This document shows, piece after piece, positions 26,901-46,044 of a DNA stretch of 64,000 bases (position 1 is its first letter; each line of letters begins with the position of its first letter). The position numbers and the translations under genes are program-made. Source of the stretch: Bacteroidia bacterium (lineage in GTDB: Bacteria; Bacteroidota; Bacteroidia; Bacteroidales; CAJPTX01); contig CAJPTC010000013.1 in the NCBI GenBank assembly GCA_905373475.1, forward strand, positions 2,060-66,059. The letters run 5' to 3'. The notes below the pieces were generated by a model. That model did not search any database, had not been told where the DNA came from, and was given only the letters and a program-made list of their open reading frames with translations.

Positions 26901-29900
26901 CGGCAGGGGCGAGGCTGTATTACGGAGCAGATGAAATTGTAATGAGTGCTAGCGGTGCAGAAGTATCGCTTGATCTGACTTCGCCACGTAAATTGCGAGT
27001 TGTGGCACAAAATGGTTACGATGCCAAAACCTATACCGTACGTCTTGCTATGGCGCAGACAATAACTTGGTCGGAAGAAAAAATCGTGCATCCATTCGCT
27101 AGTGTTTCACTTGCTCTTGATGCGACAACTTCGTCGGCATTAGTGGTAAGATACAATAGCCTAGACCCGTCTGTTGCTACCGTGGACGCTGCAGGGAATT
27201 TGATAGCGGCGGGTGTCGGAAAAACGAAACTTTTGGCCTACCAAGAAGGAAACGGACAATACAAACCTGCGCCTATAAAAGAGCGAGAGGTAGAAATAAC
27301 ACGTGCTGATCTCACCATTAAGGTGAAAGATGTTACGATGGCGCAAGGTGATATGTTGCCTCCACTCGAATTTGAATATGAGGGGCTACAGTTTGAAGGA
27401 ACAGAACGCGAGTTTACATGGCCGTATGAAATACAAACCTCTGACGGGCAAGTCTGCAGTACAGACCAACAGTTAGTGCCAGGAGTATACCGCATAGTTC
27501 CGAAGGAATATTCGGGGGCATACGAATCGGGGAATTATAGGGTGACACGTGAGAATGGTAAACTAACAGTTCTTGAGGCTCAGCGTGCTAAGGCTATCAC
27601 TTTCGTAGCGAAAGATCAGAACGATGCACCTTTGGCGGGGGTTGTTGTACAGTGTGATGTATACACATATATAACACAAGCAGATGGGAGAGTTACGCTC
27701 TATTTATTACCCAAACAAAAGAGCTATCGTGTATTGGCAAGTAAACTTGGGTATGTATCTGCCGAGCAATCGTTTGTCGTTTCGGAGGCTGCAGAAGTGA
27801 CTTTGAAATTGTTACAACGCGTTTATAAGCTTACCTATCAGACCGATGTCTTTGGTATAATCTCGGGTAGTTCTGAACAAATGATTGCAGCACAGCACGA
27901 TGGCGAGCAAGTAGTGGCAGTACCGCGAGATAGACAACATCGTTTCAAACAATGGTCGGATGGGGTGACAACTGCCGCACGTACCGATAAGAACGTTACA
28001 GCCGATATAAGTGCAACTGCGGAGTTTGAACCATATTTTTATACGCTTACTTATTCTGTTTCGGAAGGTGGCGAGTTTGTGTCGGCGGAGGATACCCAAG
28101 TGCAAAAGATAGTACCTGGTGCGGACGGACAGGTAGTGACCGTTAAGGCTAAGGCGGGCTATGTCTTCCTCGGCTGGGAGGATGGAGAACGAAATCTGTC
28201 GCGTACAGATCGAGCTGTTTGGGAAGACAAATCGGTAAAAGCTATATTTTTCAAGCCCTATCGTTTATCGTGGACGGAGAATTTTGATAACGATGCGTTT
28301 ACACTACAAGGCTGGGAATATGGTTCGTCTAAATACGGTCGTGGATGGCAAATCTTCCCTGAAAAGACAATCACCAATAAACCTGATGCTGCGGGTAAAG
28401 TTCTTGCCATTGCTCCACGGTTTGAGCCAGCACCTAAACCTATATATGCCGATTGTTGGGTTGCATCGCCGTGGTTAGCACTGGAAGGGGGAAGTGCGGC
28501 TTCCAAAATTCAGTTGACATATACACATCGGATGCTCGTGATTGGACTCACTACGGCGCATGTAGAGTATTGCTTCGAAGATGGTACATGGGTAAAGGCT
28601 CACGATATTCCCGCAGGTGTAGAGGCGCAGGTAGCTACTCTCGAATTGGAGGCTTCGACTTTAGCCACGCATAAATATGTACGTATACGTTGGGTGTTTA
28701 CTACTCCGAGTTCGTTTACCTACCTTGCTATAGATAATATAAAAGTGACTTTTATTCCCGAAGTAGTGCAGCAGACTTTGCGTTATTTTGCTGAGGAGAA
28801 TGGTTTGTTGCAAAAACAAGGCGAGAATGAGAAGGTGGCGTATCTCGAGCTTCAGACCCCTAAAGATATTCCTGCCACAAAGGTGGTAGCAGTACCTAAT
28901 GAGGGCTTTAGCTTCGATCGGTGGTCAGATGGTCTTGAAAGTGCGGAACGCCAGGATGCGCGGGATGTAACGGTGGTTGCCATGTTCCGTGTTAAGCCCA
29001 AGCCGACGTATACAATTACGTATCTGTTAGGCGAGCATGGGGCAGCATTGCTAGGAAGTCCGTATCAGTCGCGTACGGAGGGAGACTATACAGCGCCTGT
29101 TACAGCAGTTGCTCAAACGGGTTTCAGGTTCTTACAGTGGAATGACGGTGTAAAAGTCAATCCGAGAACTGATAAAGTGACTGCTGAGAATAAGACCTAT
29201 ACAGCACAGTTTATGCAAGTCTTTACATTAACCTACGTTGCAGGCGATGGTGGTACAATTGTAGGTACTACTCCGCAAACGGTCGATGCTGGTGGTAGCG
29301 GTACAGAGGTAGAAGCGAAAGCCAATGCAGGTTACCACTTCGTTAAGTGGAACGATGGTATTACAACCGCCAAACGTACCGAAACCAATGTACAAGCCAG
29401 CAAGACGTATACGGCGCAGTTTGAAGCCGATGTGAAGACATTCGCCGTAAAACTCGCTCATGAGGGTGAAGGTACATTAGTTATAACAGGCTATGATGCC
29501 GAGAAGCTTAAGACCGTTCCCGAAGGCACCGAACTCACAGCAGTGGCAACGCCTGCAAAGGGTTGGAAGTTGAAGAGCCTTACGGCGGGTACACAGGACA
29601 TCTCGTCAGACGGCAAGTTCACGGTAACCGCCAATGTTGAGGTGAAGGCAGTATTTGAAGAAGAAGGTAGTGGTCCGCAACCTAAGACGTTCGCTGTAAC
29701 GCTTGCGAAAGAAGGCGAAGGCAAGCTGAAGATAACGGGCATAGAAGAAAGTAAACTGAATGCCGTTCCCGAAGGCACCGAGCTCACGGCAGTGGCAACG
29801 CCTGCAAAGGGTTGGAAGTTGAAGCGCCTTACAGCAGGTACACAGGACATCTCGTCAGACGGTAAGTTCACGGTAACCGCGGATGTTGAGGTAAAGGCAG

Positions 29901-30172
29901 TGTTTGTGAAGAGTACTTCTGTTGACGATGCTGTATTGGCCAATGTGCTTGTAGCGCCTAATCCGTTCGATAATCAATTACGAATTGTAAACGGCGATTT
30001 ACGAGGGGAATATGCGTTATTGAATGCACAAGGTGTTGTAGTACGTAGTGGCAGTATGGCTGGTAACGAGGTACTGATTGAAACTAGCGATCTTATTTCA
30101 GGTCTCTACCTCTTGCGTCTCACTTCCGAAAATGGTGCAACGAGGACAATAACAGTCGTAAAAGAAAGATAA
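20933..30172 (+). CDS. Giant (~3,079 aa) multidomain subtilase-family (S8) surface protein with T9SS C-terminal sorting domain, paralog 3
   Basis: The track starts at TTG 20918; the ATG at 20933 gives MRRSLLLLLFLSIGLLLYA|QEP. The S8 motifs are intact: GIWDGNVGDHVDYG, AHGMHTTGTIVGSG, LTSNSYG and GTSMACPTVTGHLALL. Domain order matches copies 1 and 2 (LamG-like WQHIAVT..VFIDGQ..FRLWN, Big_2/MBG, InlB-type repeats, MAM-like, 2 x 83-aa module, CTD VAPNPF..GLYLLRL..RTITVVKER). Confidence 0.9.
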   Translation: MRRSLLLLLFLSIGLLLYAQEPVRFGDHEVYLEANVHAKVRGHKTSSLELGIPTGEKLNVLVQFGTEKISYEALKQKGVKLGDYLGSNAYYAQVDPGSRPSDFVGTGLRTVVPIRGEWKVVNSLLQNTAPDWAVDGARLKMTLSWFSGVSWVKVKSLLEKKQIAYHAASEPLQTVEIEGTRDAILALASEECVSFITWTAPPQEITNYHGARLSGASVLSLPPLQNGRGLTGKGIRIGIWDGNVGDHVDYGSRVHRCEFEQSITGTGAHGMHTTGTIVGSGLLDPRTQGMAPEAQIWTYNFTVVSNGKPIPQKMYEAYMAEDISLTSNSYGLKIKNICGRDELFNYTLMGNSNVDYLSCNIPTLTHVYAAGNDQYACQRPFSHSGNYSKNIISVGALDAFGTITDFSSFGPLLDGRIYPIVSAYGYAVLSTVDGQRYERMNGTSMACPTVTGHLALLTQRWKQLHGGALPTNYFLKALIANTADDAGNLGPDYKYGFGILNAEAAVTVIEGRTYELAQLTTDTQKRDLTLQVPNGVQELRVMLCWNDPVARKEYLTGESPLVNDLNLSVTSGGTTHLPLTLDFKHPSALAQEAVNKVDNIEQVVIKNPAQGEYILTVNGVLKQGDKQPYALVWYFDYQQPTIVSPAMGDIFAAGDTVYLRTRNMQSPLSVSFSTDDGTTFTALGSYDANAAVVLPKSLAPTNSAILRATDANNQTLEVAQLTIMGQVKGVKLTTSPCSSDGWKLAWEEVADAAHYEILKGDIEKGSYEKVAEVAAPALEYVISSSDVVLGRNVYAVRAVSSTGIKGQRSVGVLSQAAMPLMLSEQQLPFFDSFVGTPFRYVTTEAGKKIKFRKEEALENYALPFDSHMLVWQPSRPASAWENPFVTQRDNVGAVSMCEIDLSAISAGTALKFVANYYMAKSAKPKGSLLRLLVDNEEVADELGRTQIAGDSDEHFAAWDFSEYAGKKIRVKLEFALATPQDGIVLISYQLMTKTQQSDVGIVWANVPEISAKAYMENEDIRFKVQNFSSVEAQNIPVSVQVDGEVVYSYLIETLKPFEDRIFSYKHNFASREARKYVVDIRTSVKDDAKPQNNEATFGVYNMGEVLTMPEVTYVEFMGSLFPQIPYETHRFSGHRKFVDGRGELGSYNPGEFAVLKLLPTAPNSVLQATFLKQELAVSDTLFVFTGNVPSNLQDISTKDASYILTGRSSDPSTFISEATDGALTFILIGYNKIPGEGWIANLSELPMPNQWQLLKIKEVAGSDAVHSKLELTVNNLLPVPFYNVGVYLSVDGVTKRLTIPQLPAGESVVVLDEELSIAPPMRSEVLVTLASDGDVSDNSQKCLIQHDPIGKLGGKITSPNALYIAEVAVVGEKDTIRLLPSEYITYKPECKIPLYTKSENALRVRLSGKPTQEQSVAKLRIWTNLDGNNELKDEAPELIVVPLQKDKSGYEAVINLSAVTSIALGEQRMRVMLATDEGYALFKEGKEMEWGSVVDFTALIREGVSPNDYELALLRFQSPKTAHTLGVAEPISLKVRNNGLAKLTSIALSCMVDNLTFDETVNCDIAPRGGVGTVTLSHGADLSLEGKHTIQIALKNKDVNQADNSLKLTVFNIPARTEDLYSLSFVGDKEEYVSFPRVAQNIENEATVEGWWYLNKPQMSGLVYGGENGIQVLSLAGHKDYPDNSLVVLIGPNGGYVSKQPVIKPEQWQHIAVTLVQDEDMFTGNMLTTAEVFIDGQKIQLKRLRYDGFKLEHLWANVRLQGQNAMFRLWNTVRTPAEIKDNMCKSVRIADGTLPTGCEAEFLYTEGRSQASASGDEHFAMIRSERTDVWKKLERVVRSVEVAQQVRPTEHEGSAMTITLPQDFVGFDKVKLQFLSDWADAEITYSSAVITSDTEIDFSQNSEHKLAFKAVKSDLFGKTLTQDFTVQLKNDLSNACDIEELALLKLKNSGLKEDLTVNNPSTLIVLDTGDEVLSDEFDASHVCLTIKRLSAGARLYYGADEIVMSASGAEVSLDLTSPRKLRVVAQNGYDAKTYTVRLAMAQTITWSEEKIVHPFASVSLALDATTSSALVVRYNSLDPSVATVDAAGNLIAAGVGKTKLLAYQEGNGQYKPAPIKEREVEITRADLTIKVKDVTMAQGDMLPPLEFEYEGLQFEGTEREFTWPYEIQTSDGQVCSTDQQLVPGVYRIVPKEYSGAYESGNYRVTRENGKLTVLEAQRAKAITFVAKDQNDAPLAGVVVQCDVYTYITQADGRVTLYLLPKQKSYRVLASKLGYVSAEQSFVVSEAAEVTLKLLQRVYKLTYQTDVFGIISGSSEQMIAAQHDGEQVVAVPRDRQHRFKQWSDGVTTAARTDKNVTADISATAEFEPYFYTLTYSVSEGGEFVSAEDTQVQKIVPGADGQVVTVKAKAGYVFLGWEDGERNLSRTDRAVWEDKSVKAIFFKPYRLSWTENFDNDAFTLQGWEYGSSKYGRGWQIFPEKTITNKPDAAGKVLAIAPRFEPAPKPIYADCWVASPWLALEGGSAASKIQLTYTHRMLVIGLTTAHVEYCFEDGTWVKAHDIPAGVEAQVATLELEASTLATHKYVRIRWVFTTPSSFTYLAIDNIKVTFIPEVVQQTLRYFAEENGLLQKQGENEKVAYLELQTPKDIPATKVVAVPNEGFSFDRWSDGLESAERQDARDVTVVAMFRVKPKPTYTITYLLGEHGAALLGSPYQSRTEGDYTAPVTAVAQTGFRFLQWNDGVKVNPRTDKVTAENKTYTAQFMQVFTLTYVAGDGGTIVGTTPQTVDAGGSGTEVEAKANAGYHFVKWNDGITTAKRTETNVQASKTYTAQFEADVKTFAVKLAHEGEGTLVITGYDAEKLKTVPEGTELTAVATPAKGWKLKSLTAGTQDISSDGKFTVTANVEVKAVFEEEGSGPQPKTFAVTLAKEGEGKLKITGIEESKLNAVPEGTELTAVATPAKGWKLKRLTAGTQDISSDGKFTVTADVEVKAVFVKSTSVDDAVLANVLVAPNPFDNQLRIVNGDLRGEYALLNAQGVVVRSGSMAGNEVLIETSDLISGLYLLRLTSENGATRTITVVKER
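29441..29911 (+). repeat. In-frame tandem duplication (2 x 249 bp) inside giant gene 3
   Basis: Copy starts lie at 29441 and 29690: FAVKLAHEGEGTLVITGYDAEKLKTVPEGTELTAVATPAKGWKLKSL.. and FAVTLAKEGEGKLKITGIEESKLNAVPEGTELTAVATPAKGWKLKRL... Confidence 0.9.
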
Positions 30173-30184
30173 TGAGATTTGTAG

Positions 30185-30227
30185 GGGGGAGGCGCGCCTC
30201 CCCCGTAAAATGCGCACCGCGCATTTT
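30185..30227 (+). terminator. Double GC-rich hairpin immediately after the giant gene 3 stop (possible terminator)
   Basis: A perfect 10-bp-arm palindrome at 30185-30204 is followed by a 9-bp stem AAAATGCGC/GCGCATTTT at 30207-30227. The U-tract is part of the second stem, so terminator function is uncertain. Confidence 0.4.
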
Positions 30228-30285
30228 CAGACAGCATTGCGATTGTAGCGTCGTGTTATGACGCGACGCCAGTAATTTAGTACAA

Positions 30286-30317
30286 CGGGTATTGCCTTTG
30301 GGCGATGCCCGTTTTTT
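30286..30317 (+). terminator. Putative intrinsic terminator
   Basis: CGGGTATTGCC-TTTG-GGCGATGCCCG stem (with G-U pairs) followed by TTTTTT. Confidence 0.55.
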
Positions 30318-30648
30318 GATAGGTTTTCGCCCAACGTTTTACATTGGGCTGCTGTGTGCTACCTTTACAGGGCACAGATGGCTGGGACATGATCACCCAA
30401 GGCGTTGCCTTGGGCTAGATTGTGCTGCACTTTCAAAACATGGTTTCATATCTAAATGGAAGTAATATACGAAACGGGGTATGTAGCGTCGTGCCATGGC
30501 ACGACGCCAATAAAGATCAATTAGGCGTGCGGGCATTGCCTACGAACTGTTTTTTTACAGCCCCTTATAATGGGTTACCCGTGGTGCTCCGTAGGACACA
30601 TCTAACCTTACAAAAACAAACAGGGGAATTGACCCAAACAAAAAACAG

Positions 30649-30656
30649 TACTTTTG
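30649..30656 (+). promoter_or_regulatory. Candidate Bacteroidota -7 promoter box (TAnnTTTG) for the SusC-like gene
   Basis: TACTTTTG ends 37 nt upstream of ATG 30693. It overlaps the TTG at 30654 that the ORF track used as the start. Confidence 0.45.
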
Positions 30657-30692
30657 TCATACTATTTTACTAATCTTATTAAGGTAGGTTGC

Positions 30693-33600
30693 ATGAAAAA
30701 ATGTTTAATGCTCCTAGCGTTTTTAGCGCTAGGTCTCTCGTTGTTTGCGCAACCGCGCACAGTGACGGGAGTGGTCACTTCTGCCGAAGACAATGAACCT
30801 CTCCTTCAGGTAGTGGTACAGGTCAAAGGCACGCAAACTGCGGTGGTTACCGATGCTGATGGACGTTACTCTATCCGTGTTGCAGATCCGACCGCTGTGC
30901 TCGTTTTCTCTTACACGGGATACGCTACACAAGAAATTACAGTAGCAGAACAAGAAACGATCAATGTCGTAATGGCGGCATCCGTTGAAGAGATAGACGA
31001 AGTTATGGTCGTAGCTTTCGGGAAAGCTAAGAAGAGTGCCTTTACAGGATCGGCTGTCTCAGTAGGCGAAAAGGAGTTGGAACGCAAGCAAGTTTCCAAC
31101 GTGATGAATGCTCTCTCAGGGAAGGTGCCAGGTGTGACAGTTTACTCTTCAAATAACCAGCCTGGTACAGGATCTTCTGTCCGCATTCGTGGTACAGGTT
31201 CTTTTTCGGCGGGTAGCGATCCACTCTACGTAGTAGACGGAGTGCCATACGATGGCGACATCTCCGCTATAAACCCTGCCGATGTAGAGAGTACTGTGTT
31301 GCTGAAAGATGCTGCTTCAGCGGCGTTGTACGGTGCGCGTGCTGCCAACGGCGTAGTAATGATTACGACGAAGAACGGCGCAAATGCTAAACAGACTGGG
31401 GTTGCTAATATCAACCTCGCTGCGAAGGTCGGCTATAACTTCAAGGGAATACCTTCGTATGACCGCATTACAGACCCTAAGAAGTATGTGGAGAAGTATT
31501 ACGAAGCGCTTTACTACTACTATCGCTATTCTTCCGCACGCCATATTGGTTCTACTGAAGAGCAACAGATGTCGGCTGCACAGGATGCTATTCTTAATCG
31601 TGAGTCTGGGCTAGTTTACTTCCCTTTCACTCTTAATGATCCGTCAGCTGATTGGTTTACAAAGAATCCCGACGGGACGTTCTCTATGAATAAGAATGCT
31701 ACGCTCGGCAGATGGCATGTAGACCCGAGTACAGGCAAGAAGTATTGGATGCAGCCAGACGATTGGGACAAGCAAGCATACTTGCCCAACATGCGTCAGG
31801 AGTACAACCTCTCTGTTTCGGGACGTTCTGACAAAGTGAACTATTTCTTCTCGGCAGGCTATCTCAACGACAAAGGTTACTTGCGTGGGTCTAGCTACGA
31901 ACGCTATTCTTCGCGTTTGCGTGTGGACTTTACACCCAAGTCTTGGCTCAAGATGGGTGGTAACGTAGCGTTCTCGGGGAGTTCGATAGATGCGTACTCG
32001 GGAACCAATTCGGGTTCTAGTAGTGACAACATTTTTGCATTGATAAACTACGCGGGGCCTCACTACCCGATTTGGGTACGTGACGAAAATAAGCGCGTTG
32101 CTACGAACAGTCTAGGACTTCCGATTTACGACTTTGGTTCGGGACAGTTCCCAGGTCTATCTAACCGTCCGCTGTTACACTGGTCGAACCCGCTGGCTAC
32201 AAAGATCTACGACCTAAATATAGATGAAGCTTATACGGGAGCGCTACGTGATTATATCGACTTTATTCTCCCCTACGGATTTAAGGTTACGCTCAACATG
32301 GGCTTTGACATCAACCAGAACGGAGCTACTGAAACCTCTAACCCGCTTTATGGACAGAATGCTTCTACGGGCGGCTCTATCGTAAGAAGTGAGTCGCGTT
32401 CTACTTCCTTGAACGTACAGCAGTTGTTGAATTGGTCACATTCGTTTGACGAACACCACATCGATGTTGTGCTCGGACACGAATACTATGCGAGCGAAAA
32501 CAAACTTTTACAAGGGAGTAGGAAGCAACTTTTCCGACTCAAGACGCGCGAGCTTTCAGGTGCAATATCCGATCAGCAGGCAACGTCTTCTAGCCGTCGT
32601 TACCGCGTAGAAGGATACCTTGCACGCGCCTCATACGATTGGAAGGAACGTTACTTCCTTAGTCTCTCTTTCCGTCGCGATGGTTCTTCGCGTTTTGCTA
32701 AGAATGCTCGTTGGGGGAATTTCGGTAGCGTGGGCGCTTCTTGGTTAATACATCAGGAGGCATTCATGGAATCTTTCCGTACTTGGCTTGATATGTTAAA
32801 ATTCAAAGCGAGTTACGGTATTCAGGGGAATGACCAAATCGGGCTACAGTTTGGTTACAAGGATCTTTACTCACTCCGTAACCTGAACAATGAGTTTGGG
32901 GTGGCTTTCTCGGCAAAGGGGAGTGAGAACCTGACATGGGAAACGAGTCACAACCTTAATATAGGTATAGAATATGGTGTACTAGGTAATCGACTCACTG
33001 GGAGTATCGACTTCTTCCGTCGTGCCGTCTCTGACATGTTGTTCGAGGTAACCGTACCTCCGAGTTCGGGGTATTCGTCTTTCTGGTCTAATGTAGGGCA
33101 GATGAACAATACGGGGGTTGACTTTGAGATTCGTGGTGTGCCATATCGTACCCACAAGGTAGAGTGGACGGCTTACATCAATGGTAGCCATGTTACGAAC
33201 CGTATTGTAAAACTCCCAGAAGAGTGGAATAAGAGTTCTAAATGGGGCTATGTAAGTGGCAACTATGTTTACCGTGAGGGCGGTTCGTTGGCAGATTTGT
33301 TTATTCCTAAATATCTCGGATTGAACGATAAGGGGGAAAGCAGATGGCAGACGGCAGATGGTGAGACGACCGACTACTCAGTTGCTTCAAAAAATGAAAA
33401 CCGCGTCATATTCCCAGCTAAGCAAGATATCTTGCGTGGAGGCTTTGGTTCGAATGTAGATTTTTATAACTTCGACTTCGGAGTATCATTTACTTATGCA
33501 TTTGGCGGTCGCGGTATCGACCAGACTTACATGGACTTGATGCACGGTGGTGCACAGAATGGTACAGCAATGCACAAAGACCTCCTGAAGGCTTGGACTC

Positions 33601-33899
33601 CCGAACGTCCCAATACGAATGTACCACGTCTAACTACTTCGGAAGGGGCGCGTCAGAATGGTATCTCCGATCGTTTCTTTATTAGTCGCAGTTATTTGGC
33701 GATTGACAACATAACATTTGGGTATACGCTTCCCCAAAACTGGGCAGACAGACTCTACCTCTCTTCATTGCGCGTATATGCCGTAGCAGACAATGTTTGG
33801 CTCTTCTCGGCACGTAAGGGCTATGACCCGCGTTTTGGAGGCGGAATTGGTTACAAGGCAATGCGTACCATTTCCTTGGGAGTTACTGCCAATTTCTAA
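30693..33899 (+). CDS. SusC/RagA-family TonB-dependent outer-membrane transporter
   Basis: ATG 30693 gives MKKCLMLLAFLALGLSLFA|QPRTVTGVV... The protein has a CarboxypepD_reg-like N-domain (TVTGVVTSAEDNEPLL..DADGRYSI) and plug motifs (DEVMVVAFG, LSGKVPGVTV, PLYVVDGVPY..LKDAASAALYGARAANGVVMITTK). A long barrel ends in ..ISLGVTANF with a C-terminal Phe. Confidence 0.9.
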   Translation: MKKCLMLLAFLALGLSLFAQPRTVTGVVTSAEDNEPLLQVVVQVKGTQTAVVTDADGRYSIRVADPTAVLVFSYTGYATQEITVAEQETINVVMAASVEEIDEVMVVAFGKAKKSAFTGSAVSVGEKELERKQVSNVMNALSGKVPGVTVYSSNNQPGTGSSVRIRGTGSFSAGSDPLYVVDGVPYDGDISAINPADVESTVLLKDAASAALYGARAANGVVMITTKNGANAKQTGVANINLAAKVGYNFKGIPSYDRITDPKKYVEKYYEALYYYYRYSSARHIGSTEEQQMSAAQDAILNRESGLVYFPFTLNDPSADWFTKNPDGTFSMNKNATLGRWHVDPSTGKKYWMQPDDWDKQAYLPNMRQEYNLSVSGRSDKVNYFFSAGYLNDKGYLRGSSYERYSSRLRVDFTPKSWLKMGGNVAFSGSSIDAYSGTNSGSSSDNIFALINYAGPHYPIWVRDENKRVATNSLGLPIYDFGSGQFPGLSNRPLLHWSNPLATKIYDLNIDEAYTGALRDYIDFILPYGFKVTLNMGFDINQNGATETSNPLYGQNASTGGSIVRSESRSTSLNVQQLLNWSHSFDEHHIDVVLGHEYYASENKLLQGSRKQLFRLKTRELSGAISDQQATSSSRRYRVEGYLARASYDWKERYFLSLSFRRDGSSRFAKNARWGNFGSVGASWLIHQEAFMESFRTWLDMLKFKASYGIQGNDQIGLQFGYKDLYSLRNLNNEFGVAFSAKGSENLTWETSHNLNIGIEYGVLGNRLTGSIDFFRRAVSDMLFEVTVPPSSGYSSFWSNVGQMNNTGVDFEIRGVPYRTHKVEWTAYINGSHVTNRIVKLPEEWNKSSKWGYVSGNYVYREGGSLADLFIPKYLGLNDKGESRWQTADGETTDYSVASKNENRVIFPAKQDILRGGFGSNVDFYNFDFGVSFTYAFGGRGIDQTYMDLMHGGAQNGTAMHKDLLKAWTPERPNTNVPRLTTSEGARQNGISDRFFISRSYLAIDNITFGYTLPQNWADRLYLSSLRVYAVADNVWLFSARKGYDPRFGGGIGYKAMRTISLGVTANF

Positions 33900-33926
33900 T
33901 ATCCCATCCTATAATACATTACAGAC

Positions 33927-35606
33927 ATGAAATACAGAATTCTGTTTTTTACAATAGTCCTGTTGCCCGTGCTACTTTTCTTTGCGAGTTGTGCAAAGGA
34001 GTTGGAGTTTGAACCCACGGGGAGTGTGCTTACTCCCGATCAGCTCAAAGAAGCAGGGAAACTTTCGCAGGATCGGGCGAATGTGATCTTCAAAGGGATG
34101 TATGGAGAGTTGAAGCGCTTCAATCGCCTAGGCAATTCACCAGCGTATGCATACGATTTTGGGTATTCATCTTTTGCTTTGATGTTGGATCACCTCTCCG
34201 ATAAAATGTGGTCGGTAGACCATCGTTACAATTGGTATCGCAGTGTATTCAAGTATGTTGCACTCGGCGAGACTTCAGCAATTACGTATCTACTCTACTC
34301 CAGTTATTATGCCTACATCGCAGAGGCAAATAAGGTGCTCAATACCGTTAGTGATGAAACGGATGAGGGGAAGAGCTTCCGTGCACAGGCACGTGCGTTT
34401 CGTGCTTTCGCATACCTGAATCTGATCCAGTCCTACCAGTTCACCTATAAAGGGAATGAGCAGGCATCGGGTGTACCGATCGTGCGTGAAAATATGACAC
34501 GTGCACAGCAGATCGATAATAAGCGTGCCTCCGTTGAAGAAGTTTACAACTATATTCTTGAAGACCTGAACTATGCAAAGGATATCTTACAAGATTCTAT
34601 CCCTAAGCAGAAGTCTACTATAGGGGGCTGCGCGGTGTATGGTCTTTTGGCGCGTACCTATTTACTGATGCAAAACTGGCAAGAGGCTTATACTGCAGCA
34701 CAGAAGGCATTGGAAATTGCGGGGCGTGCAAACATTACTCCGTTGCGTACAGCTGAGGCGAATAGACCAGGTTTCAACGATATCCGAATCCACAATGTGA
34801 TCTGGGGGATTGACTATACTCCTGACGACCTTGTTACCAAGAGCGATATGATGACTTGGGAGTCTATGATGTGCTCTTTGAAGTATGGGCAGAATGCGCC
34901 GCTAACGTACACCGTACGTGGTTTCATTTTGCGTAAGGTAAATCCCGATTTCTATGAGACAATAGATCCCACTGACGTGCGTAAGGCATGGTTCTATACA
35001 CCTGAGTACGACGCAGGATTGCGCCGCTTCTTGAGTGATGCAGGTGCAACCGCAGCAGAATTAGATGATCAGATCAAACTAATTGTCGAGAAGCAGTGGA
35101 AGGGGCAACTCTATGCGAACATTAAGTTTGCACCGTATCAGGGCAATCCAGGCGCTCGTATCAATGCAACCGATTTCCCTCTAATGCGTGTGGAAGAGTT
35201 GTATTACATCCAAGCAGAAGCGATTGCAAGGGACAACGAGGCTAAAGGTATTGAGTATCTAGAGAAATTTATAACGAACTACCGTCAGCCTACCTATAAT
35301 TATGCAAAGAACCAAGCTCGTTTAGGACAAACTTCGTTCACACAAGAAATTTATCGTCAGCGTGCACTTGAGTTCTGGGGTGAGGGAATTACCTTCTATG
35401 ATATGATGCGTCTAGGGCTTCCACTGATGCGCGAGGGTACGCTTGCTAAGCGTGATCCTAGTGCAGGTGGTTATCCGCTCGAGTCTCGTTTCAATATCCC
35501 TGCGGGCGATAACAAGTTCCTATTCCAGTTCCCCCGCGAAGAGATTCTTAACAACCGTGCGGTACAGCAGAATCCTATTGGCGAACAGATTAAGGATACC
35601 TTCTAG
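33927..35606 (+). CDS. SusD/RagB-family outer-membrane lipoprotein
   Basis: Lipoprotein signal LLFFASC|AKE. It starts 27 nt after the SusC stop. The protein is ~540 aa and helical, with the family-typical C-terminal region ..YYIQAEAIA..YRQRALEFWGEGITFYDMMRLGLP. Confidence 0.85.
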   Translation: MKYRILFFTIVLLPVLLFFASCAKELEFEPTGSVLTPDQLKEAGKLSQDRANVIFKGMYGELKRFNRLGNSPAYAYDFGYSSFALMLDHLSDKMWSVDHRYNWYRSVFKYVALGETSAITYLLYSSYYAYIAEANKVLNTVSDETDEGKSFRAQARAFRAFAYLNLIQSYQFTYKGNEQASGVPIVRENMTRAQQIDNKRASVEEVYNYILEDLNYAKDILQDSIPKQKSTIGGCAVYGLLARTYLLMQNWQEAYTAAQKALEIAGRANITPLRTAEANRPGFNDIRIHNVIWGIDYTPDDLVTKSDMMTWESMMCSLKYGQNAPLTYTVRGFILRKVNPDFYETIDPTDVRKAWFYTPEYDAGLRRFLSDAGATAAELDDQIKLIVEKQWKGQLYANIKFAPYQGNPGARINATDFPLMRVEELYYIQAEAIARDNEAKGIEYLEKFITNYRQPTYNYAKNQARLGQTSFTQEIYRQRALEFWGEGITFYDMMRLGLPLMREGTLAKRDPSAGGYPLESRFNIPAGDNKFLFQFPREEILNNRAVQQNPIGEQIKDTF

Positions 35607-35637
35607 AGGATTCGCTTAGGAACAGTTACAACAAAAA

Positions 35638-38292
35638 ATGATTCTGGCGATGAGACGATTATTGTTTTTCGGTTACTTGTTCTTGTCCTTGCTACTCGCC
35701 AAGTCGCTCTGTGGTGCGCCCATTGACTTGCAGCGGGCACAAGAATTAGCACAGCAGCAGTTGCAAAGCGTACAACCGCTTCGTGGGAAAGGGTACACAC
35801 TTGCGCTCTCCTATACAAGTTCGGGTGTGCCTGTACGTGGCGACGTATCTGTTAAGGACTACTACATCTTTGATGTGAAAGGGCGCGATGGCTTTGTCAT
35901 TGTCGCGGGTGATGATAATTTAGGTCAATCCATTATTGGCTATTCTCTCGAGAATAAGTTTCAGGTTGAGGGGATGCCAGCACACATTAAGAACTGGCTT
36001 GACATTAAGGCGGCATGGGTGCAAAAAGCACGTCTTCGTGGTACTGAAAAACCTGGAGAACTCCTAGATGTATACAAAAATAAGACGACGCCCATTGCGC
36101 CGATTATAAATGACATCAAGTGGGATCAGGAAGACCCATACAACATGCTAACCCCGCAGAATGCGCCTACAGGCTGTTTGGCTACTGCTATGGCACAAGT
36201 GATGCGTTATCATTGTTGGCCGATTGAGTCGCGTGGTAAGATTCGCTATACTGATGCTAGTGGTAGATCTCGTAAATACGATTTCGGTCACAGGTTTGAT
36301 TGGGCGAATATGACCAACCTCTACAATGCGCGTTCGACCGACGAAGAACGTGCTGCGGTTGCTTTGCTTATGGTAGAGTGTGGTTATGCTGCACAGATGC
36401 GTTGGACTAAGTATGGTAGCGGCGCTTATCTGTCCAATGCATTCCTAGGGTTACGTAAGTATTTCGACTACGGTCCGCGCCTCAAATATGTGCAGCAAAT
36501 TCACTATACGATAGAGGAGTGGGTAGATATTATTATGAAAGAACTCTCCGAGGGACGTCCTGTTCTTTACGGTGGTGCGGCTTTTGGTGTAGGGCATGCT
36601 TTTGTTTGCGATGGTTACGATGGTAAAGGGCTTTTCCATTTCAATTGGGGGTGGAGCGGTTTGAGTAATGGCTGGTATTCGCTCTCCGATATGTTGCCAC
36701 GAAGTCAGAGTACGGGTGGTGGAGGAGAAGGCGGATACAATATGACCGCGGATATAATAATTGGTTGGGAGCCCATGCCGAAGTCTACTGTTGTAAAGGA
36801 AGACCCGAATATTAGCGTCTATGAGCTTATGACGAACACGTCGGCTACATATTCGAAGAATACAGTTTTGGAAGGCGAAAGTGCTCTGAAACTACGCGGT
36901 CTAGCGAACTATGGCTATGATGTCGTAGAATTCCGTCCAGGCTTGCGTCTTGTGGATAATAAGGGCAAAGAGGTTAAGATCTTTTGGGCTACTGATGAGG
37001 AAATTCAGAATATGGAAGGGGGAACATTCTCGTCACGGCGAGTACCTATTCCGACAATATATTCTGACATTCCTAATGGCACCTATCAGATCGAGGTGGT
37101 ATACAAAGTCGCTGGCGAGGAGACGTTCCGCAAAATGCCAATCATGCCGCGTTATGGCAAGAATATGGTGACTATAAGCGATGATAAGGTAAACTTCTCT
37201 ACTACTGAAAATACACCTCGTTTAGAGCTTACTTGGAAGACACCAGTATTGCGCAAAGACAGTTACAATTACGTGGATTTTGAAATAAAGAACGTCGGAA
37301 ACACTGCTTATACCAGTGTTTTTGGAGCAGGCTGGTCAGACAAGAAAACAACAACGGAGCGCCCATCAAGTACGCAATTCTTCGTCTTTGTTCAATCTTT
37401 GCGACTAGAAGTTGGCGAGACGCAGGTCTTCCACGAGCTGCTCCCGACATTCCCAGAAGAGATAGATGCTAACTACCTCCACTTCTATTGGGATTCGTCG
37501 AATGGAACAAGCCAAGATCTCATGCTAGAGGTCGGCGGGCGCTACTATCCTGTTGAACCTTTTGCGGTTGCAGAGTTTGAGAAGAAGCCTGCTTATAATT
37601 ACAGCGAAGAGTATAAAGCCGAACTAGAGAATGTGCCTAGTGAGGTTGTACAAGGCAACTTCCTTGAGTTCGATATCAAAATAGGGAATGAGGAGAAGAA
37701 TATGGGTGTCGATACAGGGCTTAAGGTCTTGTTCTTTAATGACAACACGATAGACACTATTGCGTCGCACCGTATTGGGACATGTTATTTACCCCCGAAC
37801 CATACTGAAACCTTCCATGTCCGTTATCCTGTCACTTGGGCACCGCGTGACGGCTATTCGTTCCACGTTGTCTATCAGGTCGTGGAACTAGAGGCAGATC
37901 TTGAGAACCCAGGGAAGACGAAGAAGGTGTATCAGTATATCGATTTCGAGCCCGAATTGGTAGGACGTTTCAAGGTAACGAAACCCGAGTCATCTGCTAT
38001 GCCAGTGCCTAACTATGGTACGACGGGTATTGAGGAGGCGAAAGCGTTAGAGGCTTTTGTCGCATCGCCGAACCCTTTCCGCGATGTGCTGCGCATTCTT
38101 GCGCCTGATTCTTACAACGTACAGGGTACTTGCTACGAGTTGGTGAGCGCACAAGGCATTGTTGTGCGAAAAGGGCTATTACAGGATAGAGAAACTCTCC
38201 TTAATACAAAGGGGTTGCCTGCTGGTCTTTATATGTTGCGTTTGGCAACAAAGACGGGCGAGCAACGAACACATAGAGTAGTGAAACACTAA
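35638..38292 (+). CDS. Peptidase C10 (streptopain/PrtT-like cysteine protease) with T9SS C-terminal sorting domain
   Basis: Starts 31 nt after the SusD stop. It has a signal peptide and a Spi/I69-like pro-region (YYIFDVKGRDGFVIVAGDDNLGQSIIGYS). The catalytic Cys motif is QNAPTGCLATAMAQVMRYHCWP, the His motif is FGVGHAFVCDGYD, and FHFNWGWSG follows. The CTD reads VASPNPF..GLYMLRL..RTHRVVKH. Confidence 0.85.
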   Translation: MILAMRRLLFFGYLFLSLLLAKSLCGAPIDLQRAQELAQQQLQSVQPLRGKGYTLALSYTSSGVPVRGDVSVKDYYIFDVKGRDGFVIVAGDDNLGQSIIGYSLENKFQVEGMPAHIKNWLDIKAAWVQKARLRGTEKPGELLDVYKNKTTPIAPIINDIKWDQEDPYNMLTPQNAPTGCLATAMAQVMRYHCWPIESRGKIRYTDASGRSRKYDFGHRFDWANMTNLYNARSTDEERAAVALLMVECGYAAQMRWTKYGSGAYLSNAFLGLRKYFDYGPRLKYVQQIHYTIEEWVDIIMKELSEGRPVLYGGAAFGVGHAFVCDGYDGKGLFHFNWGWSGLSNGWYSLSDMLPRSQSTGGGGEGGYNMTADIIIGWEPMPKSTVVKEDPNISVYELMTNTSATYSKNTVLEGESALKLRGLANYGYDVVEFRPGLRLVDNKGKEVKIFWATDEEIQNMEGGTFSSRRVPIPTIYSDIPNGTYQIEVVYKVAGEETFRKMPIMPRYGKNMVTISDDKVNFSTTENTPRLELTWKTPVLRKDSYNYVDFEIKNVGNTAYTSVFGAGWSDKKTTTERPSSTQFFVFVQSLRLEVGETQVFHELLPTFPEEIDANYLHFYWDSSNGTSQDLMLEVGGRYYPVEPFAVAEFEKKPAYNYSEEYKAELENVPSEVVQGNFLEFDIKIGNEEKNMGVDTGLKVLFFNDNTIDTIASHRIGTCYLPPNHTETFHVRYPVTWAPRDGYSFHVVYQVVELEADLENPGKTKKVYQYIDFEPELVGRFKVTKPESSAMPVPNYGTTGIEEAKALEAFVASPNPFRDVLRILAPDSYNVQGTCYELVSAQGIVVRKGLLQDRETLLNTKGLPAGLYMLRLATKTGEQRTHRVVKH

Positions 38293-38308
38293 ATACTATT
38301 CCATGACA

Positions 38309-38343
38309 GACCTCGACACGTCCTATGGCGTGCCGAGGTCTTT
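38309..38343 (+). terminator. Putative intrinsic terminator after the C10 protease gene
   Basis: GACCTCGACACG-TCCTATGG-CGTGCCGAGGTC (12-bp stem, one mismatch) followed by TTT. Confidence 0.55.
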
Positions 38344-38390
38344 GAATAGTTCATTGAATTGATTGATTTTAATCCTTTGTAGATTTCAAT

Positions 38391-41300
38391 ATGAAAAGGA
38401 TACTAACCTATTTTGTGTCAGCGCTCTTCCTGCTGACTCTCTTCGTATCGGCTACTGTCCGAGCAGAAGATAAACCGTTCATTACGGTGTGGAAGGTGGA
38501 TGATGCTAACAAGAGTATTACCTTCCCTGGCTTAGGGAAGTTTACTCTCAAATACAAGCTCGTTGGCTCTGCAGGTACTCCTACCGATCTCGGAGAAGTA
38601 AATGTAACCGATGAAAGCAAAAGAAAGGTTATTGAATTCCCCGCAGCGGGAGAATATGAGGTGGAGGCATCGCATCAAATTACAGGGCTTTATGCTCGTG
38701 GAGCTACGAACCGCGATGCGCTAATACTTGTTAAGCAGTGGGGGACAGCGAAATGGGAAAAACTAGCGAACGCATTTGAAGGCTGTGGGAATGTAGATAT
38801 CGCCGCTACCGCTGGAATACCGACGCTGACAACAGTGAAATCGCTGTCGCGTACATTTGGGCAGTGTAAAAAGTTGACTGCCGACCTGAAGGATTGGGAT
38901 GTGAGCAACGTAGAAGACTTCACGGCGATGTTCGTGTCGTGTACCCTCTTTAATAGCGATTTGTCGGCTTGGAATGTTGCCAAAGCGAAAAGTATGACCA
39001 ATATGTTCTCGGGGGCTGCGAAGTTTAACCAAGACTTGAGTGCATGGAAGGACAAACTCACGGCTTGTACTAAGATGAGCCGCATGTTCTATGGGTGCAC
39101 AGACTTTGAAGGTACGTCGCTGAAAGACTGGGATGTAAGTCATGTAACCGACATGTCGCATATGTTTGAGGGCTGTACTGTATTCAACGGAGATCTCGCG
39201 ACTTGGAATGTGTCAGCAGTAACTGATATGAATGCGATGTTTGCAGGTTGTAGCGTTTTTGCGGCGAACCTTGCAACGTGGAATGTGGCGAAGGTGACCG
39301 ACATGAGTGCGATGTTCAAAGGTTGCCGTCTCTTTAATAGCGATCTGAAAACGTGGGATGTCTCCAAGGTCAAGAACATGGAGAATATCTTTTCCAATTG
39401 TTACAGTTTTAGTTTTTCGATAAAAGATTGGCAACTGACGGCGCTTTTGACGGGCGATAAGAAAATTAGCATTGAGAATGTCGCTTATAACGAAGCTGTG
39501 GTAGACGAACTCCTTACGACGTGGAAAGCAAGGAACTACAAGCGACTAGAAATAGTTGCCAATGGTTTGTACTATTCCAGTAGTATGGGAGCAACGGTGG
39601 CAGAGTTGAGAGACAATGCAGGGCAGTATAAGTGGCGTCTGACGGGCTTTAATGAAGCAAAAGCTGGTCAGTTTAAGTTTGCAGAACGTATTGTCACCAT
39701 GAAGCGCGGAGAGCGTAAGGAAATGCCCGCATTTGAGGGGAAATTCCTTTCACACCGAGTTCTGGTCATAGAGCGCGATCCAGAGGTAGTAGCGCAGACG
39801 TGGAAGACAACGGACGTAACAGATAAAGCAAAATCAGGTGAGTATGTTGAACTAAAAGAGAATCGTGACATTGAACTCGTCGCTATTTTCCAAAAAGAAG
39901 GGCGTACTGCTGGTGCGGGCAAGCACTTTGTTCAGCTCAACGTGTATGGTAGTGGACAAGGGACTGTTACGGGTAATCTAGGTGCTACGGCGATACAACA
40001 GGGCGATAACCTAGTTGATAATACTACGAACGAAAGTGAATTGACGTTAGCGCCTGCGGCGGGGTGCAAGTTTACCAGCGTTATGGTACGTAGCGAAGGC
40101 GAAGATGCCAATGATAATCCAACGGGCTACTATCGTTTTGGAGGCGATAATCTTACTGTGAAAGTGCCAAAGAGTGACCGAAATTTGGTAATTGACGTAG
40201 TTTTTGATAAAACAGATGTAACCGAATTCAGTGCGCCAGATTATAAACTTTATGTAAGTACTGTTGGTTCTGGGAAGGGCAAGATTCAGGGTAAGATTGC
40301 AGAAACAGCGTTTACGGCGGGTGAAAATACTGTGCGCAAAACAGATGAAGTAAGCTATACCATCGTACCTGAGGCGGGCTCTAAGTTGGAAAAACTGTTT
40401 ATTGTAGAGAAAGACACCCGAATTTTTGCCACTTCGGTCGGCGAGACAAATTGGTCGTTGAAATACGAAGACCGCAAGATAGAGCAGGGGGGAAGGATGA
40501 TCTCTGACCCTGTAAAAGCTCCAGAATCGCGTAAACTCCTCGTAACGGTACAGCCTTCGCTTTTGAAGAATATGGAGTTGCAAGGGCTTGCGCCAGGTGA
40601 TACGTATGAATGGTATGTGGGCAAGACGCTTACTGCCGATTTCGGAAAGCCTGGGCATCCCAAAATTGTTTACACGCCTGAGAATGCGACCAACAAGAGC
40701 ATTTCATGGTCATTCGAGCCGAACAACAATGAAGAATATGTAGATGTTGCTTCGCAACGTGCAAAGAAGGGCACGCCTGCAGGGGTAAAGATTCATTGCG
40801 TGGGTACATCTAATGCTGACCCTTCCTTGAAAATTGAGTTTGACGCTGTGATTAAGGAGAAGTTGGTAACAAAGGTTCTTGTAGGCTCGAACCCTGGAAA
40901 AATTTGGACTGCAAAGCCAGGTACTCCAGATGAGGTGAAGGGCGAAGGGATTGAACTAGGGGCAGAATTTTTACTTCTTGTTCAGATTGAACCAGAGGAT
41001 GCCTCTAATCAAGAGTACGACGTAGTTTTTGCTCCAGATGGTATCATCAAGCCGCTTGGTAAGAACATGTTCCGAGCTATGAAAGTCGCTGATGAGGTGA
41101 CGATGACCGTTACAAGCAAGTCTAGTTCGCATGTGGCGAATACCAAGAAGTTTAAGGTATGGAAGGAAGCGGTAACGGGAATTGAGATCCGTAAAGCGCC
41201 TGAAAAGATTGAGCTTAAGAAGAATACACTGCGCTTAAAGTGGCGTGTACTGCCCGTGGCGGATGAAGAGAAGGGTATAAGGGGTGCAACGGTAAAAACA

Positions 41301-41714
41301 GTTCGTTTTGAAGTAAGCGATACATCTGTTATGAAGCCGAAAGTACATCCTGGGAACTTTAAGCTCCTGAAGGCTGGCAAGAGCGATATTACAGTGATTA
41401 GCGTTGACGACGAGACGAAGCGTGCGACAGTCACGATTGAAGTTGTTGCGCCCACTACGGGAATTGAAGAAGAGGCATTGGCAAAAGCCGCCGTAATGCC
41501 TAACCCTTTTGCGGAGAAGTTCTATGTCTCAGGCTATGAGCTCTGGGCGGGTCGCTATGAACTAATCAATGCACAAGGTGTGGTGGTACTAGGTGGGCAA
41601 CTAATGCCTAGCACAACCGAGATTGCCACTACGGGCATCCCGTCTGGCGTTTATGTGCTACGTCTTACTGCGCCAGAAGGCACAACGCGAACAATAAAAG
41701 TTGTGAAGCATTAA
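38391..41714 (+). CDS. BspA-family leucine-rich-repeat (DUF285) surface protein with Big_2-like domains and T9SS C-terminal sorting domain
   Basis: Signal peptide ..VSATVRA|EDK. It carries about 8 DUF285-type repeats (WDVSNVEDFTAMF..FNSDLSAWNVAKAKSMTNMF..FNQDLSAWK..WDVSHVTDMSHMFEGCTVFNGDLATWNVSAVTDMNAMF..). InlB-B-like and Big_2-like modules follow. The CTD reads VMPNPF..GVYVLRL..RTIKVVKH. Confidence 0.85.
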   Translation: MKRILTYFVSALFLLTLFVSATVRAEDKPFITVWKVDDANKSITFPGLGKFTLKYKLVGSAGTPTDLGEVNVTDESKRKVIEFPAAGEYEVEASHQITGLYARGATNRDALILVKQWGTAKWEKLANAFEGCGNVDIAATAGIPTLTTVKSLSRTFGQCKKLTADLKDWDVSNVEDFTAMFVSCTLFNSDLSAWNVAKAKSMTNMFSGAAKFNQDLSAWKDKLTACTKMSRMFYGCTDFEGTSLKDWDVSHVTDMSHMFEGCTVFNGDLATWNVSAVTDMNAMFAGCSVFAANLATWNVAKVTDMSAMFKGCRLFNSDLKTWDVSKVKNMENIFSNCYSFSFSIKDWQLTALLTGDKKISIENVAYNEAVVDELLTTWKARNYKRLEIVANGLYYSSSMGATVAELRDNAGQYKWRLTGFNEAKAGQFKFAERIVTMKRGERKEMPAFEGKFLSHRVLVIERDPEVVAQTWKTTDVTDKAKSGEYVELKENRDIELVAIFQKEGRTAGAGKHFVQLNVYGSGQGTVTGNLGATAIQQGDNLVDNTTNESELTLAPAAGCKFTSVMVRSEGEDANDNPTGYYRFGGDNLTVKVPKSDRNLVIDVVFDKTDVTEFSAPDYKLYVSTVGSGKGKIQGKIAETAFTAGENTVRKTDEVSYTIVPEAGSKLEKLFIVEKDTRIFATSVGETNWSLKYEDRKIEQGGRMISDPVKAPESRKLLVTVQPSLLKNMELQGLAPGDTYEWYVGKTLTADFGKPGHPKIVYTPENATNKSISWSFEPNNNEEYVDVASQRAKKGTPAGVKIHCVGTSNADPSLKIEFDAVIKEKLVTKVLVGSNPGKIWTAKPGTPDEVKGEGIELGAEFLLLVQIEPEDASNQEYDVVFAPDGIIKPLGKNMFRAMKVADEVTMTVTSKSSSHVANTKKFKVWKEAVTGIEIRKAPEKIELKKNTLRLKWRVLPVADEEKGIRGATVKTVRFEVSDTSVMKPKVHPGNFKLLKAGKSDITVISVDDETKRATVTIEVVAPTTGIEEEALAKAAVMPNPFAEKFYVSGYELWAGRYELINAQGVVVLGGQLMPSTTEIATTGIPSGVYVLRLTAPEGTTRTIKVVKH

Positions 41715-41740
41715 GTGTCGAACACGTTTTACGTATACAA

Positions 41741-41771
41741 GGGGAGTCTCTCGTCGAGGCTTCCCTTTTTT
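41741..41771 (+). terminator. Putative intrinsic terminator
   Basis: Imperfect hairpin GGGGAGTCTC-TCGTC-GAGGCTTCCC followed by TTTTTT. Confidence 0.5.
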
Positions 41772-41997
41772 CATGATAATTGATGTGAAGATAATTATTG
41801 TTGGAGTCTCTGCTTTTGTGATGTCACAAGTCAACTCGCTTTTATTTGCTACTGTTCTAAATTACGAAAGATGAAATGTTTCTTTTATTTGACTAATTGT
41901 AACGAAAGAGCACTGTAATACGTGAGTGACGTGGCGAACTCTAAATACAAGACTTCGATTAGTACATTAGTCAGGTAGTTAAGAGCTTGCGAGGCGC

Positions 41998-46042: not shown

Positions 46043-46044
46043 GT

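Follow-up and report, generated by a model that had tools for sequence, protein, structure and literature searches.

A conserved block of four genes, coding for a SusC-like transporter, a SusD-like lipoprotein, a C10 cysteine protease and a DUF285 surface protein, is present in the 64-kb contig stretch of an uncultured Bacteroidia bacterium analyzed here (contig CAJPTC010000013.1; the whole stretch is called the window in the following). As far as sequence comparisons can tell, this susC-susD-C10 protease-DUF285 block is probably a self-contained operon for the acquisition of protein or peptides, to which we would assign a probability of roughly 60%. Co-transcription of the genes, co-localization of their products at the cell surface and peptides as the imported substrate are the parts of this proposal that we infer. 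A previous sequence-only reading of the same DNA had already suggested a protein- or peptide-directed module that resembles a polysaccharide utilization locus (PUL). The core of this idea is retained, since the SusCD-C10 block turned out to be conserved and the clade around its SusD protein to be biased toward proteases, but the supposed relatedness to RagAB and the membership of the neighboring S8 proteases have to be given up.

The large open reading frames (ORFs) of the window were searched against Pfam and the window was compared to related stretches of DNA, which are labeled L followed by a number. The features of the block and its surroundings are listed in Table 1.

Conservation of the gene block

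The homologs of the SusD protein group in tiers of 97, 89, 75 and approximately 57% sequence identity, followed by a large clade with 30-40% identity. Across the upper tiers, gene order and orientation of the block are kept with intergenic gaps of 27-51 nt, while the flanks change. In the window itself, susC, susD and the C10 gene are arranged head to tail with gaps of 27 nt (susC-susD) and 31 nt (susD-C10), and the terminator scan did not reveal any terminator-like site in either of the two gaps. The coordinates of these three genes and the short distances between them had been read from the ORFs before and are borne out by our ORF and Pfam analysis.

The block sits behind at least five different upstream neighbors. 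In the closest relative (L093, 97% SusD identity), all four genes follow a giant S8 protease gene. In L014 (92%), the block is preceded by minus-strand genes, in L001-L003 (75%) by a gene for a BcrAD_BadFG protein and in L004-L007 (57%) by a gene for an AAA-ATPase/PDDEXK protein. An ABC transporter is encoded upstream in L094 and L095 (89%), where the block can be followed through C10 and the contig ends within the next gene. The block is also present in L013 (96%), whose contig starts inside susC. The DUF285 gene is located 3' of the C10 gene in L001-L007, L013, L014 and L093. The four proteins diverge together: at SusD identities of 92, 75 and 57%, the corresponding values are 93, 81 and 75% for SusC, 90, 74 and 70% for the catalytic domain of the C10 protein and 85, 60 and 35% for the DUF285 protein. 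Conservation of the synteny in related genomes was one of the checks proposed along with the sequence-only reading, and the order SusC-SusD-C10 is indeed kept in relatives down to 57% SusD identity and in differing contexts. The link between SusCD and C10 is not a chance adjacency.

This comparison also shifts the borders of the module. The SusCD pair had been described as embedded among three S8 proteases and the C10 protease. The three S8 genes upstream are real, however they are situated outside the conserved module. We considered them as module members and rejected this, because they accompany the block nowhere but in the window and the 97% relative L093; the S8 giants are a lineage- or species-level neighbor and the conserved unit consists of four genes. 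On the other side, the span assigned to the module had ended with the C10 gene and has to be extended by a fourth gene, which encodes the DUF285/PARCEL protein with its sorting domain for the type IX secretion system (T9SS). The observation that T9SS cargos are encoded beside the pair was correct, as the DUF285 protein and an additional T9SS protein without assigned function are found downstream. The gene for the latter, a cargo of 773 aa, accompanies the block in the closer relatives alone (71, 54 and 44%), and the 57% tier lacks it.

None of the large ORFs in the 64 kb matched a glycoside hydrolase, polysaccharide lyase, carbohydrate esterase, hybrid two-component system (HTCS) or extracytoplasmic function (ECF) sigma/anti-sigma factor, which extends to the whole window what had been noted for the adjacent genes before. 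A canonical PUL is defined by a susCD pair with co-localized carbohydrate-active enzymes (CAZymes), and such enzymes are encoded neither in the window nor in the orthologous blocks. A PUL regulator (HTCS, ECF sigma/anti-sigma factor or SusR) was also not found in the window, and the SusC protein does not possess an STN domain.

Properties of the encoded proteins

The susC ORF opens at a TTG codon at position 30654, and the ATG codon at position 30693 results in a protein of 1068 aa, which equals the length of the orthologs. The protein starts with a signal peptide and possesses a TonB box (IDEVMVVAFG) between the N-terminal domain and the plug. Its domains are CarbopepD_reg_2 (PF13715), the plug (PF07715) and the TonB-dependent barrel (PF00593), and it exceeds the cutoffs of both TIGR04056 (754.4 bits, cutoff 368.25) and TIGR04057 (52.3 bits, cutoff 46.2). 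It is a textbook TonB-linked transporter of the SusC/RagA family. The SusD protein is a lipoprotein of the SusD/RagB family. It is matched by SusD-like_3 (PF14322, E = 1.2e-16) and SusD_RagB (PF07980, E = 1.2e-12) and has a lipobox at Cys22, followed by the residues KELE, with Cys22 being invariant in 17 homologs. Its AlphaFold2 model (pLDDT 78, pTM 0.84) shows the SusD fold and matched more than 40 SusD structures in Foldseek.

The C10 protein is composed of a signal peptide, an I69-like propeptide, the catalytic domain, an extension of approximately 420 aa and a T9SS type A sorting domain, in this order. Pfam matches were obtained for Inhibitor_I69 (PF13734, E = 5.6e-14, residues 27-122), Peptidase_C10 (PF01640, E = 1.4e-61) and Por_Secre_tail (PF18962). 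The catalytic residues Cys180 (TGC180LATA) and His320 (GH320AF) align with those of interpain A (match with E = 6.7e-46), and in an alignment of 16 SusCD-linked C10 proteins both are invariant. With this dyad and the inhibitory propeptide at its N-terminus, the protein has the features of a C10 family zymogen. For the C-terminal half of the C10 protein, including the extension, and for the T9SS protein without assigned function, Pfam searches at E <= 1 returned the sorting domain alone.

The T9SS type A sorting domain (TIGR04183, cutoff 23 bits) was detected in the C10 protein (30.6 bits), the DUF285 protein (31.1 bits) and the 773-aa protein (33.2 bits). These proteins also have hydrophobic N-termini and thus combine a signal peptide with a sorting domain, as is expected of T9SS cargos. 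The DUF285 protein is identified by the Pfam family DUF285 (E = 2.4e-62) and the NCBIfam PARCEL repeat and is a candidate for a substrate- or host-binding partner of the other proteins.

Signals between and around the genes

A candidate -7 promoter box (TAcTTTTG) precedes the start codon of susC by approximately 35 nt, and L014 possesses TAtTTTTG at the equivalent place. The -7 consensus of Bacteroides promoters is TAnnTTTG. A scan for sigma-70 promoters performed at chance level (20 matches found, 23 expected) and was not used. No match was obtained in an Rfam scan of positions 29000-46500 at E <= 0.1, so that no riboswitch or known small RNA was detected in the susC leader.

Downstream of the third S8 gene, at positions 30244-30322 on the plus strand, there is a palindromic hairpin followed by a GC hairpin, for which the scan reported 13 pairs + TTTTTGAT. 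To judge from its sequence, this terminator module insulates susC from upstream transcription. The module of approximately 80 nt is duplicated in the spacer between the S8 gene and susC, with a degenerate copy at 30482-30560, 238 nt apart from the first one. Each copy opens with the palindrome GTAGCGTCGTG..CGACGCCA, for which 0 chance matches are expected, and continues with a GC-rich hairpin or a T run. No further copies were found in the window. Candidate explanations are a duplication of the terminator, an element resembling repetitive extragenic palindromes or a protein-binding site.

At the other end of the C10 gene, the hairpin at 38309-38343 had been regarded as the first convincing terminator. 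It is indeed a strong hairpin (-28.8 kcal/mol), however its T tract is poor, it failed the terminator scan, and the first canonical terminator follows only at 41739-41767, downstream of the DUF285 gene. Since a good U tract is missing, the transcript may continue past C10. Hairpins of -26 to -32 kcal/mol occur at the same place after C10 in L014, L001 and L004, with unrelated sequences. The conservation of the structure, but not of the sequence, suggests a functional RNA 3' end or an attenuator between the C10 and DUF285 genes. The hairpin may thus act as a partial terminator or as a stabilizer of the 3' end.

Protease bias of the wider SusD clade

A profile search for the SusD family in a species-dereplicated genome collection yielded 80 loci, of which 77 belong to the clade with 30-40% identity after leaving out two orthologs and one duplicate. 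The hosts of this clade are Prevotella, Bacteroides, Phocaeicola, Alistipes, Muribaculaceae, Parabacteroides, Proteiniphilum and others. Of the 59 distant loci whose downstream sequence extends over 3 kb or more, 14 have a C10 gene on the same strand and at most 6 kb downstream of the SusD gene. The first downstream gene encodes the same homologous lipoprotein family, which we call LpX, in 45 of 55 distant loci (L027-L092). LpX occupies the SusE/F position and comprises either 250-330 aa or, where the C-terminal half is repeated internally, 520-750 aa (examples are L072:11692-12669 and L037:11605-12465). The family has no match in Pfam or NCBIfam. We also considered that LpX might be hidden in the window, within the extension of the C10 protein or within the DUF285 protein, and rejected this, since hmmsearch with filters switched off gave a best E-value of 0.12. 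The second downstream gene (n = 32) encodes a C10 protease with I69 propeptide in 11 cases, an M6 peptidase in three, an S8 peptidase in one and a pectate lyase in one, while the remainder look like unrelated housekeeping genes.

This SusCD lineage is protease-associated and CAZyme-poor across the order. A protein- or peptide-directed SusCD locus predicts a clade in which SusD is followed by C10, M6 and S8 peptidases and almost never by CAZymes, and this matches the observation. In a Bacteroidales genome, susCD pairs number in the tens, whereas C10 genes are few. From these counts and general knowledge, as a rough background, a random susD gene would be expected to be followed by a C10 gene in less than 1% of cases, as compared to approximately 24% in this clade. 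Clades of SusC/D proteins generally track the substrate (PMC6298971), and the protease bias of the clade is therefore the strongest indirect support for a proteinaceous substrate.

A paralogous SusCD pair (55% SusC and 35% SusD identity) is encoded directly after the gene for a 1257-aa Peptidase_C25 protein of the gingipain family in the metagenome-assembled genome (MAG) that contains L014. This is a second pairing of a protease with SusCD in the same lineage. The paralogous locus corresponds to L011/L012/L021:2749-11671, with L021 originating from the MAG of L014, and a C10 lipoprotein of 459 aa is encoded 8 kb further.

A tyrosine recombinase of approximately 320 aa is encoded between divergent SusCD units in L008-L010, L023, L072 and L078, some of which are C10-linked. 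SusC/SusD clusters with the same layout undergo phase variation in Bacteroides fragilis and B. intestinalis (PMC4747536, PMC8375218), and by analogy the loci with proteases in gut species could be phase-variable as well.

The view from the protease side

With a profile of the SusCD-linked C10 domains, 80 metagenome loci with 31-45% identity were retrieved. SusD is encoded directly upstream of C10 in only two of them, L131 and L134, which have the SusC-SusD-C10-C10 arrangement of the Bacteroides intestinalis type, and in L162 the C10 gene is divergent to a SusCD-LpX unit. The generalization that C10 proteases are partners of SusCD was hence rejected, as most of the sampled C10 genes are situated in contexts free of SusCD. 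Many of them occur in tandem arrays; in L116, L128 and L174, which are metagenome loci as well, such arrays consist of three to four full-length C10 genes with no SusCD nearby.

The C10 clade of the window is placed apart from the other SusCD-linked C10 proteins, and its nearest non-ortholog is the SusCD-unlinked L096 (46% identity). This indicates that C10 genes joined related SusCD loci more than once. Such a repeated recruitment argues for a functional synergy rather than for a single inherited accident.

Evaluation of the proposed function and its alternatives

Several observations speak against a peptide-importing operon, and the first of them concern RagAB of Porphyromonas gingivalis, an oligopeptide importer of the SusCD type (10.1101/755678; PDB 6SLI). 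The sequence-only reading had suggested a RagAB-like importer, and as a statement on relatedness this is not supported by our data. When the SusD profile was searched against the PDB, BT_1439 (3snx) ranked first (E = 4.5e-62), followed by 3lew, 3kez and 3mcx, ButD of the importer for a ubiquitin homolog (8ypt) reached E = 1.7e-25 and RagB was the 13th match (E = 7.9e-14). The modeled structure led to the same order in Foldseek, where RagB ranked 15-16 with a TM-score of 0.62, which is level with the starch SusD (0.60-0.62), and the top structural relatives, BT_1439 and others, are uncharacterized SusD-like proteins. The comparison of the SusD structure with RagB and the glycan-binding SusD proteins, which had been proposed as a check, is thus uninformative at this level, as the TM-scores are indistinguishable. 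For SusC, RagA is the top match in the PDB (E = 2.8e-93), but its lead over the glycan SusC proteins is marginal (8aa4 with 1.8e-89 and BT1763 with 7.7e-85). The window pair is not a RagAB ortholog; it is perhaps RagAB-like in its function, but not in its phylogeny.

Additional points against the proposal come from the distribution of the genes and from the biology of the protein families. About three quarters of the distant loci of the SusD clade are without a protease in the available sequence, and when the search starts from the protease, C10 follows SusD in only about one of the 44 loci whose upstream sequence extends over 3 kb or more. C10 proteases are classically seen as factors of virulence and immune evasion (PMC4936053), and glycopeptides released from glycoproteins may be the true cargo of the transporter. 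Finally, the conserved hairpin after C10 could be compatible with a differential expression of the fourth gene.

The cargo question leads to an alternative that we consider rather unlikely, namely foraging on glycoproteins. Here, the C10 protease would open host proteins with heavy glycosylation, for example mucins or immunoglobulins, SusCD would import the glycopeptides or released glycans, and the trimming glycosidases would be encoded elsewhere. Most of the characterized SusCD pairs import glycans and the nearest relatives of the window SusD in the PDB are carbohydrate-binding by annotation. The DUF285/PARCEL repeat protein could also be a lectin-like binder, and B. thetaiotaomicron is described to have loci of a protease and SusCD that process mucin O-glycoprotein (PMC11992087). 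However, neither the block at any tier nor the 64-kb window encodes a glycoside hydrolase, lyase, sulfatase or carbohydrate-binding module, and among the 32 second downstream genes of the distant clade one CAZyme stands against 15 peptidases.

It is improbable in our view that the block is primarily a cassette for surface variation or host interaction, in which all encoded proteins, the SusCD-like pair as well as the protease and the repeat protein, would be surface antigens or virulence factors that are expressed together. They would serve immune evasion, adhesion or the variation of phage receptors, and the protease would attack host defense proteins rather than supply food. The C10 homologs SpeB and interpain A degrade immune proteins (PMC4936053; PMC4582931), and PARCEL/DUF285 proteins are, going by the naming of the family, surface proteins of host-associated bacteria. 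Moreover, many SusCD pairs of the distant clade are arranged divergently around a tyrosine recombinase, like the phase-variable clusters of Bacteroides (PMC4747536, PMC8375218), but there is no recombinase or inverted-repeat switch near the block in the window or near its orthologs. That TonB box, plug and barrel are intact speaks for a functional importer, and immune evasion leaves the retention of transporter and protease over such a divergence unexplained. It has to be considered that such roles and a role in feeding are not mutually exclusive.

That the genes are mere neighbors, with the C10 gene having its own promoter and an unrelated role, is very improbable: although most C10 genes are not beside SusCD and promoter-like matches occur everywhere at chance level, this explanation is disfavored and contradicted by the synteny, as order, orientation and gaps of 27-51 nt persist in relatives with as little as 57% SusD identity, in spite of changing flanks on both sides, and C10 genes have arrived independently behind related SusCD pairs, among others in Prevotella, Bacteroides and Muribaculaceae.

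Possible mechanism and implications

If the block is an operon for the acquisition of protein or peptides, its products might cooperate as follows. The T9SS would export the C10 zymogen and the DUF285/PARCEL protein, and from their family membership both can be expected to be tethered on the cell surface. T9SS cargos generally lose their sorting domain and become attached to the cell surface. After shedding of the I69-like propeptide, the protease would cleave extracellular proteins, which probably originate from the host or the diet. The resulting oligopeptides might be caught under the SusD lid and drawn through SusC by TonB-derived energy, which would correspond to the pedal-bin mechanism that is shown for RagAB and other SusCD systems (10.1101/755678, PMC7782687). 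Periplasmic peptidases might finish the cleavage, and the S9 prolyl-oligopeptidase lipoprotein encoded at 48745-50859 is a candidate for this step. The ADP-forming acyl-CoA synthetase encoded at 53877-55931 could then take part in an amino-acid-fermenting metabolism.

By linking a secreted endopeptidase and a repeat protein of the surface to the SusCD genes, such a conserved operon would do for proteins what a PUL does for polysaccharides. Its confirmation would make it possible to recognize proteolytic lifestyles of uncultured Bacteroidia from their genomes, and some of the C10 'virulence' proteases would have to be re-framed as nutritional enzymes. It would also be a tractable system for the recognition of peptides by SusCD lids, since relatives occur in cultured Bacteroides, Prevotella and Muribaculaceae.

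Somewhat doubtful is the more general idea that the block is one face of a widespread, so far unrecognized class of 'protein utilization loci' in host-associated Bacteroidales. In this class, a SusD/SusC clade would repeatedly recruit surface endopeptidases (C10, M6, S8, C25) and an accessory protein (LpX or a DUF285 T9SS protein) to form a peptide 'utilisome', which in gut species would often be phase-variable by means of a recombinase. If such a class exists, a sizeable share of the C10 'virulence' proteases of Bacteroidales would be feeding enzymes.

Comparison with known systems

To our knowledge, RagAB is the sole characterized SusCD peptide importer, and SusCD systems have otherwise been studied almost entirely as importers of glycans. 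The window block and RagAB have in common a TonB-dependent barrel capped by a SusD/RagB lipoprotein, the absence of CAZymes and the absence of an adjacent HTCS or ECF gene, and P. gingivalis is rich in T9SS-secreted proteases. In contrast, the RagAB operon does not contain a protease, whereas the window block includes both a protease and a surface repeat protein.

The canonical PUL or utilisome, as represented by the levan locus BT1760-63 of B. thetaiotaomicron (PDB 8AA0), is likewise built from a SusCD core followed by a surface enzyme and a binder, and the domain layout of its SusC and the fold of its SusD equal those of the window pair. However, the enzyme of the window block is a cysteine protease, the accessory proteins are T9SS cargos and not lipoproteins, and there is neither a sensor or regulator nor a CAZyme.

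Peptidase-linked PULs, with susCD pairs adjacent to peptidase genes, were remarked in genome surveys of Prevotella and Proteiniphilum (PMC5993710, which refers to Accetto & Avgustin 2015), and protein degradation combined with peptide import was proposed for them, as it is here. These reports are genome inventories in which we found no defined conserved architecture, C10-specific link or clade-level analysis.

Interpain A from Prevotella intermedia and streptopain (SpeB) share the C10 dyad and the N-terminal inhibitory propeptide with the window protein. Interpain A has approximately 90 kDa (PMC4582931), a size class like that of the window C10 protein with its 884 aa. The two known enzymes differ from it in being known as proteases of virulence or heme acquisition, for which we found no partnership with SusCD described, and the window protein additionally has the C-terminal extension of approximately 420 aa without a family match.

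A related arrangement is formed by loci of Bacteroidales from gut and rumen with the order SusC-SusD-LpX-(C10/M6) (L027, L038, L058, L060, L072, L076, L078 and others), with 30-40% SusD identity, a downstream protease on the same strand and no CAZymes. These loci differ by the extra LpX gene between SusD and the protease, which is absent from the window, by the divergent pairing of many of these loci around a tyrosine recombinase and by C10 proteins that are not the closest ones to the window C10.

Our literature search, which covered sources outside the subscription journals, did not retrieve any article in which a conserved operon of SusCD and C10, the LpX family or a protease association at the level of the clade is described. 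The concept as such is anticipated by RagAB and the peptidase-linked PULs, and the gain is one of definition and generality, not a new principle.

Surroundings of the block

Table 1. Features of the window in and around the susC-susD-C10-DUF285 block
Feature	Position	Strand	Basis
Three tandem S8 subtilases with T9SS sorting domains, 3072/3004/3084 aa	1375-10593, 11515-20529, 20918-30172	+	Pfam
Strong terminator (GC hairpin with T run)	30284-30313	+	Terminator scan
Candidate Bacteroidetes -7 promoter box TAcTTTTG	30650-30657	+	Read from sequence; function inferred
SusC-like TonB-dependent transporter, 1068 aa	30693-33899	+	Pfam, TIGR04056/TIGR04057
SusD-like surface lipoprotein, 559 aa; predicted transporter lid	33927-35606	+	PF14322 and PF07980, lipobox
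C10 (streptopain/interpain-type) cysteine protease, zymogen, 884 aa	35638-38292	+	Pfam, TIGR04183
Strong hairpin 3' of the C10 gene, poor U tract	38309-38343	+	Folding energy; not called by terminator scan
DUF285/PARCEL-repeat surface protein with T9SS sorting domain, 1107 aa	38391-41714	+	Pfam, NCBIfam
First canonical intrinsic terminator downstream of the block, 12-bp stem and T run	41739-41767	+	Terminator scan
T9SS cargo without assigned function, 773 aa	41987-44308	+	TIGR04183
Next scan-qualified terminator	44335-44360		Terminator scan
Class II aminoacyl-tRNA synthetase	44414-45988	+	Pfam

The S8 giants upstream of the block are paralogous to each other. In each of them, the S8 domain is followed by CARDB, Laminin_G_3, Big_2, MBG_2 and InlB-B-repeat (Flg_new_2) domains and a T9SS tail.

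Further downstream on the plus strand, the S9 prolyl oligopeptidase (48745-50859) carries the lipoprotein signal LLGSAC, and the ADP-forming acyl-CoA synthetase (53877-55931) is composed of CoA_binding, Succ_CoA_lig and ATP-grasp_5 domains. Both proteins fit a peptide- or amino-acid-fermenting metabolism. On the minus strand, a 405-aa ORF without Pfam match (60287-61504) lies beside the gene for a 781-aa receptor (61536-63881), which belongs to a non-SusC outer-membrane type (CarbopepD_reg_2, Plug and OMP_b-brl_3). These two genes may encode another, uncharacterized uptake pair.

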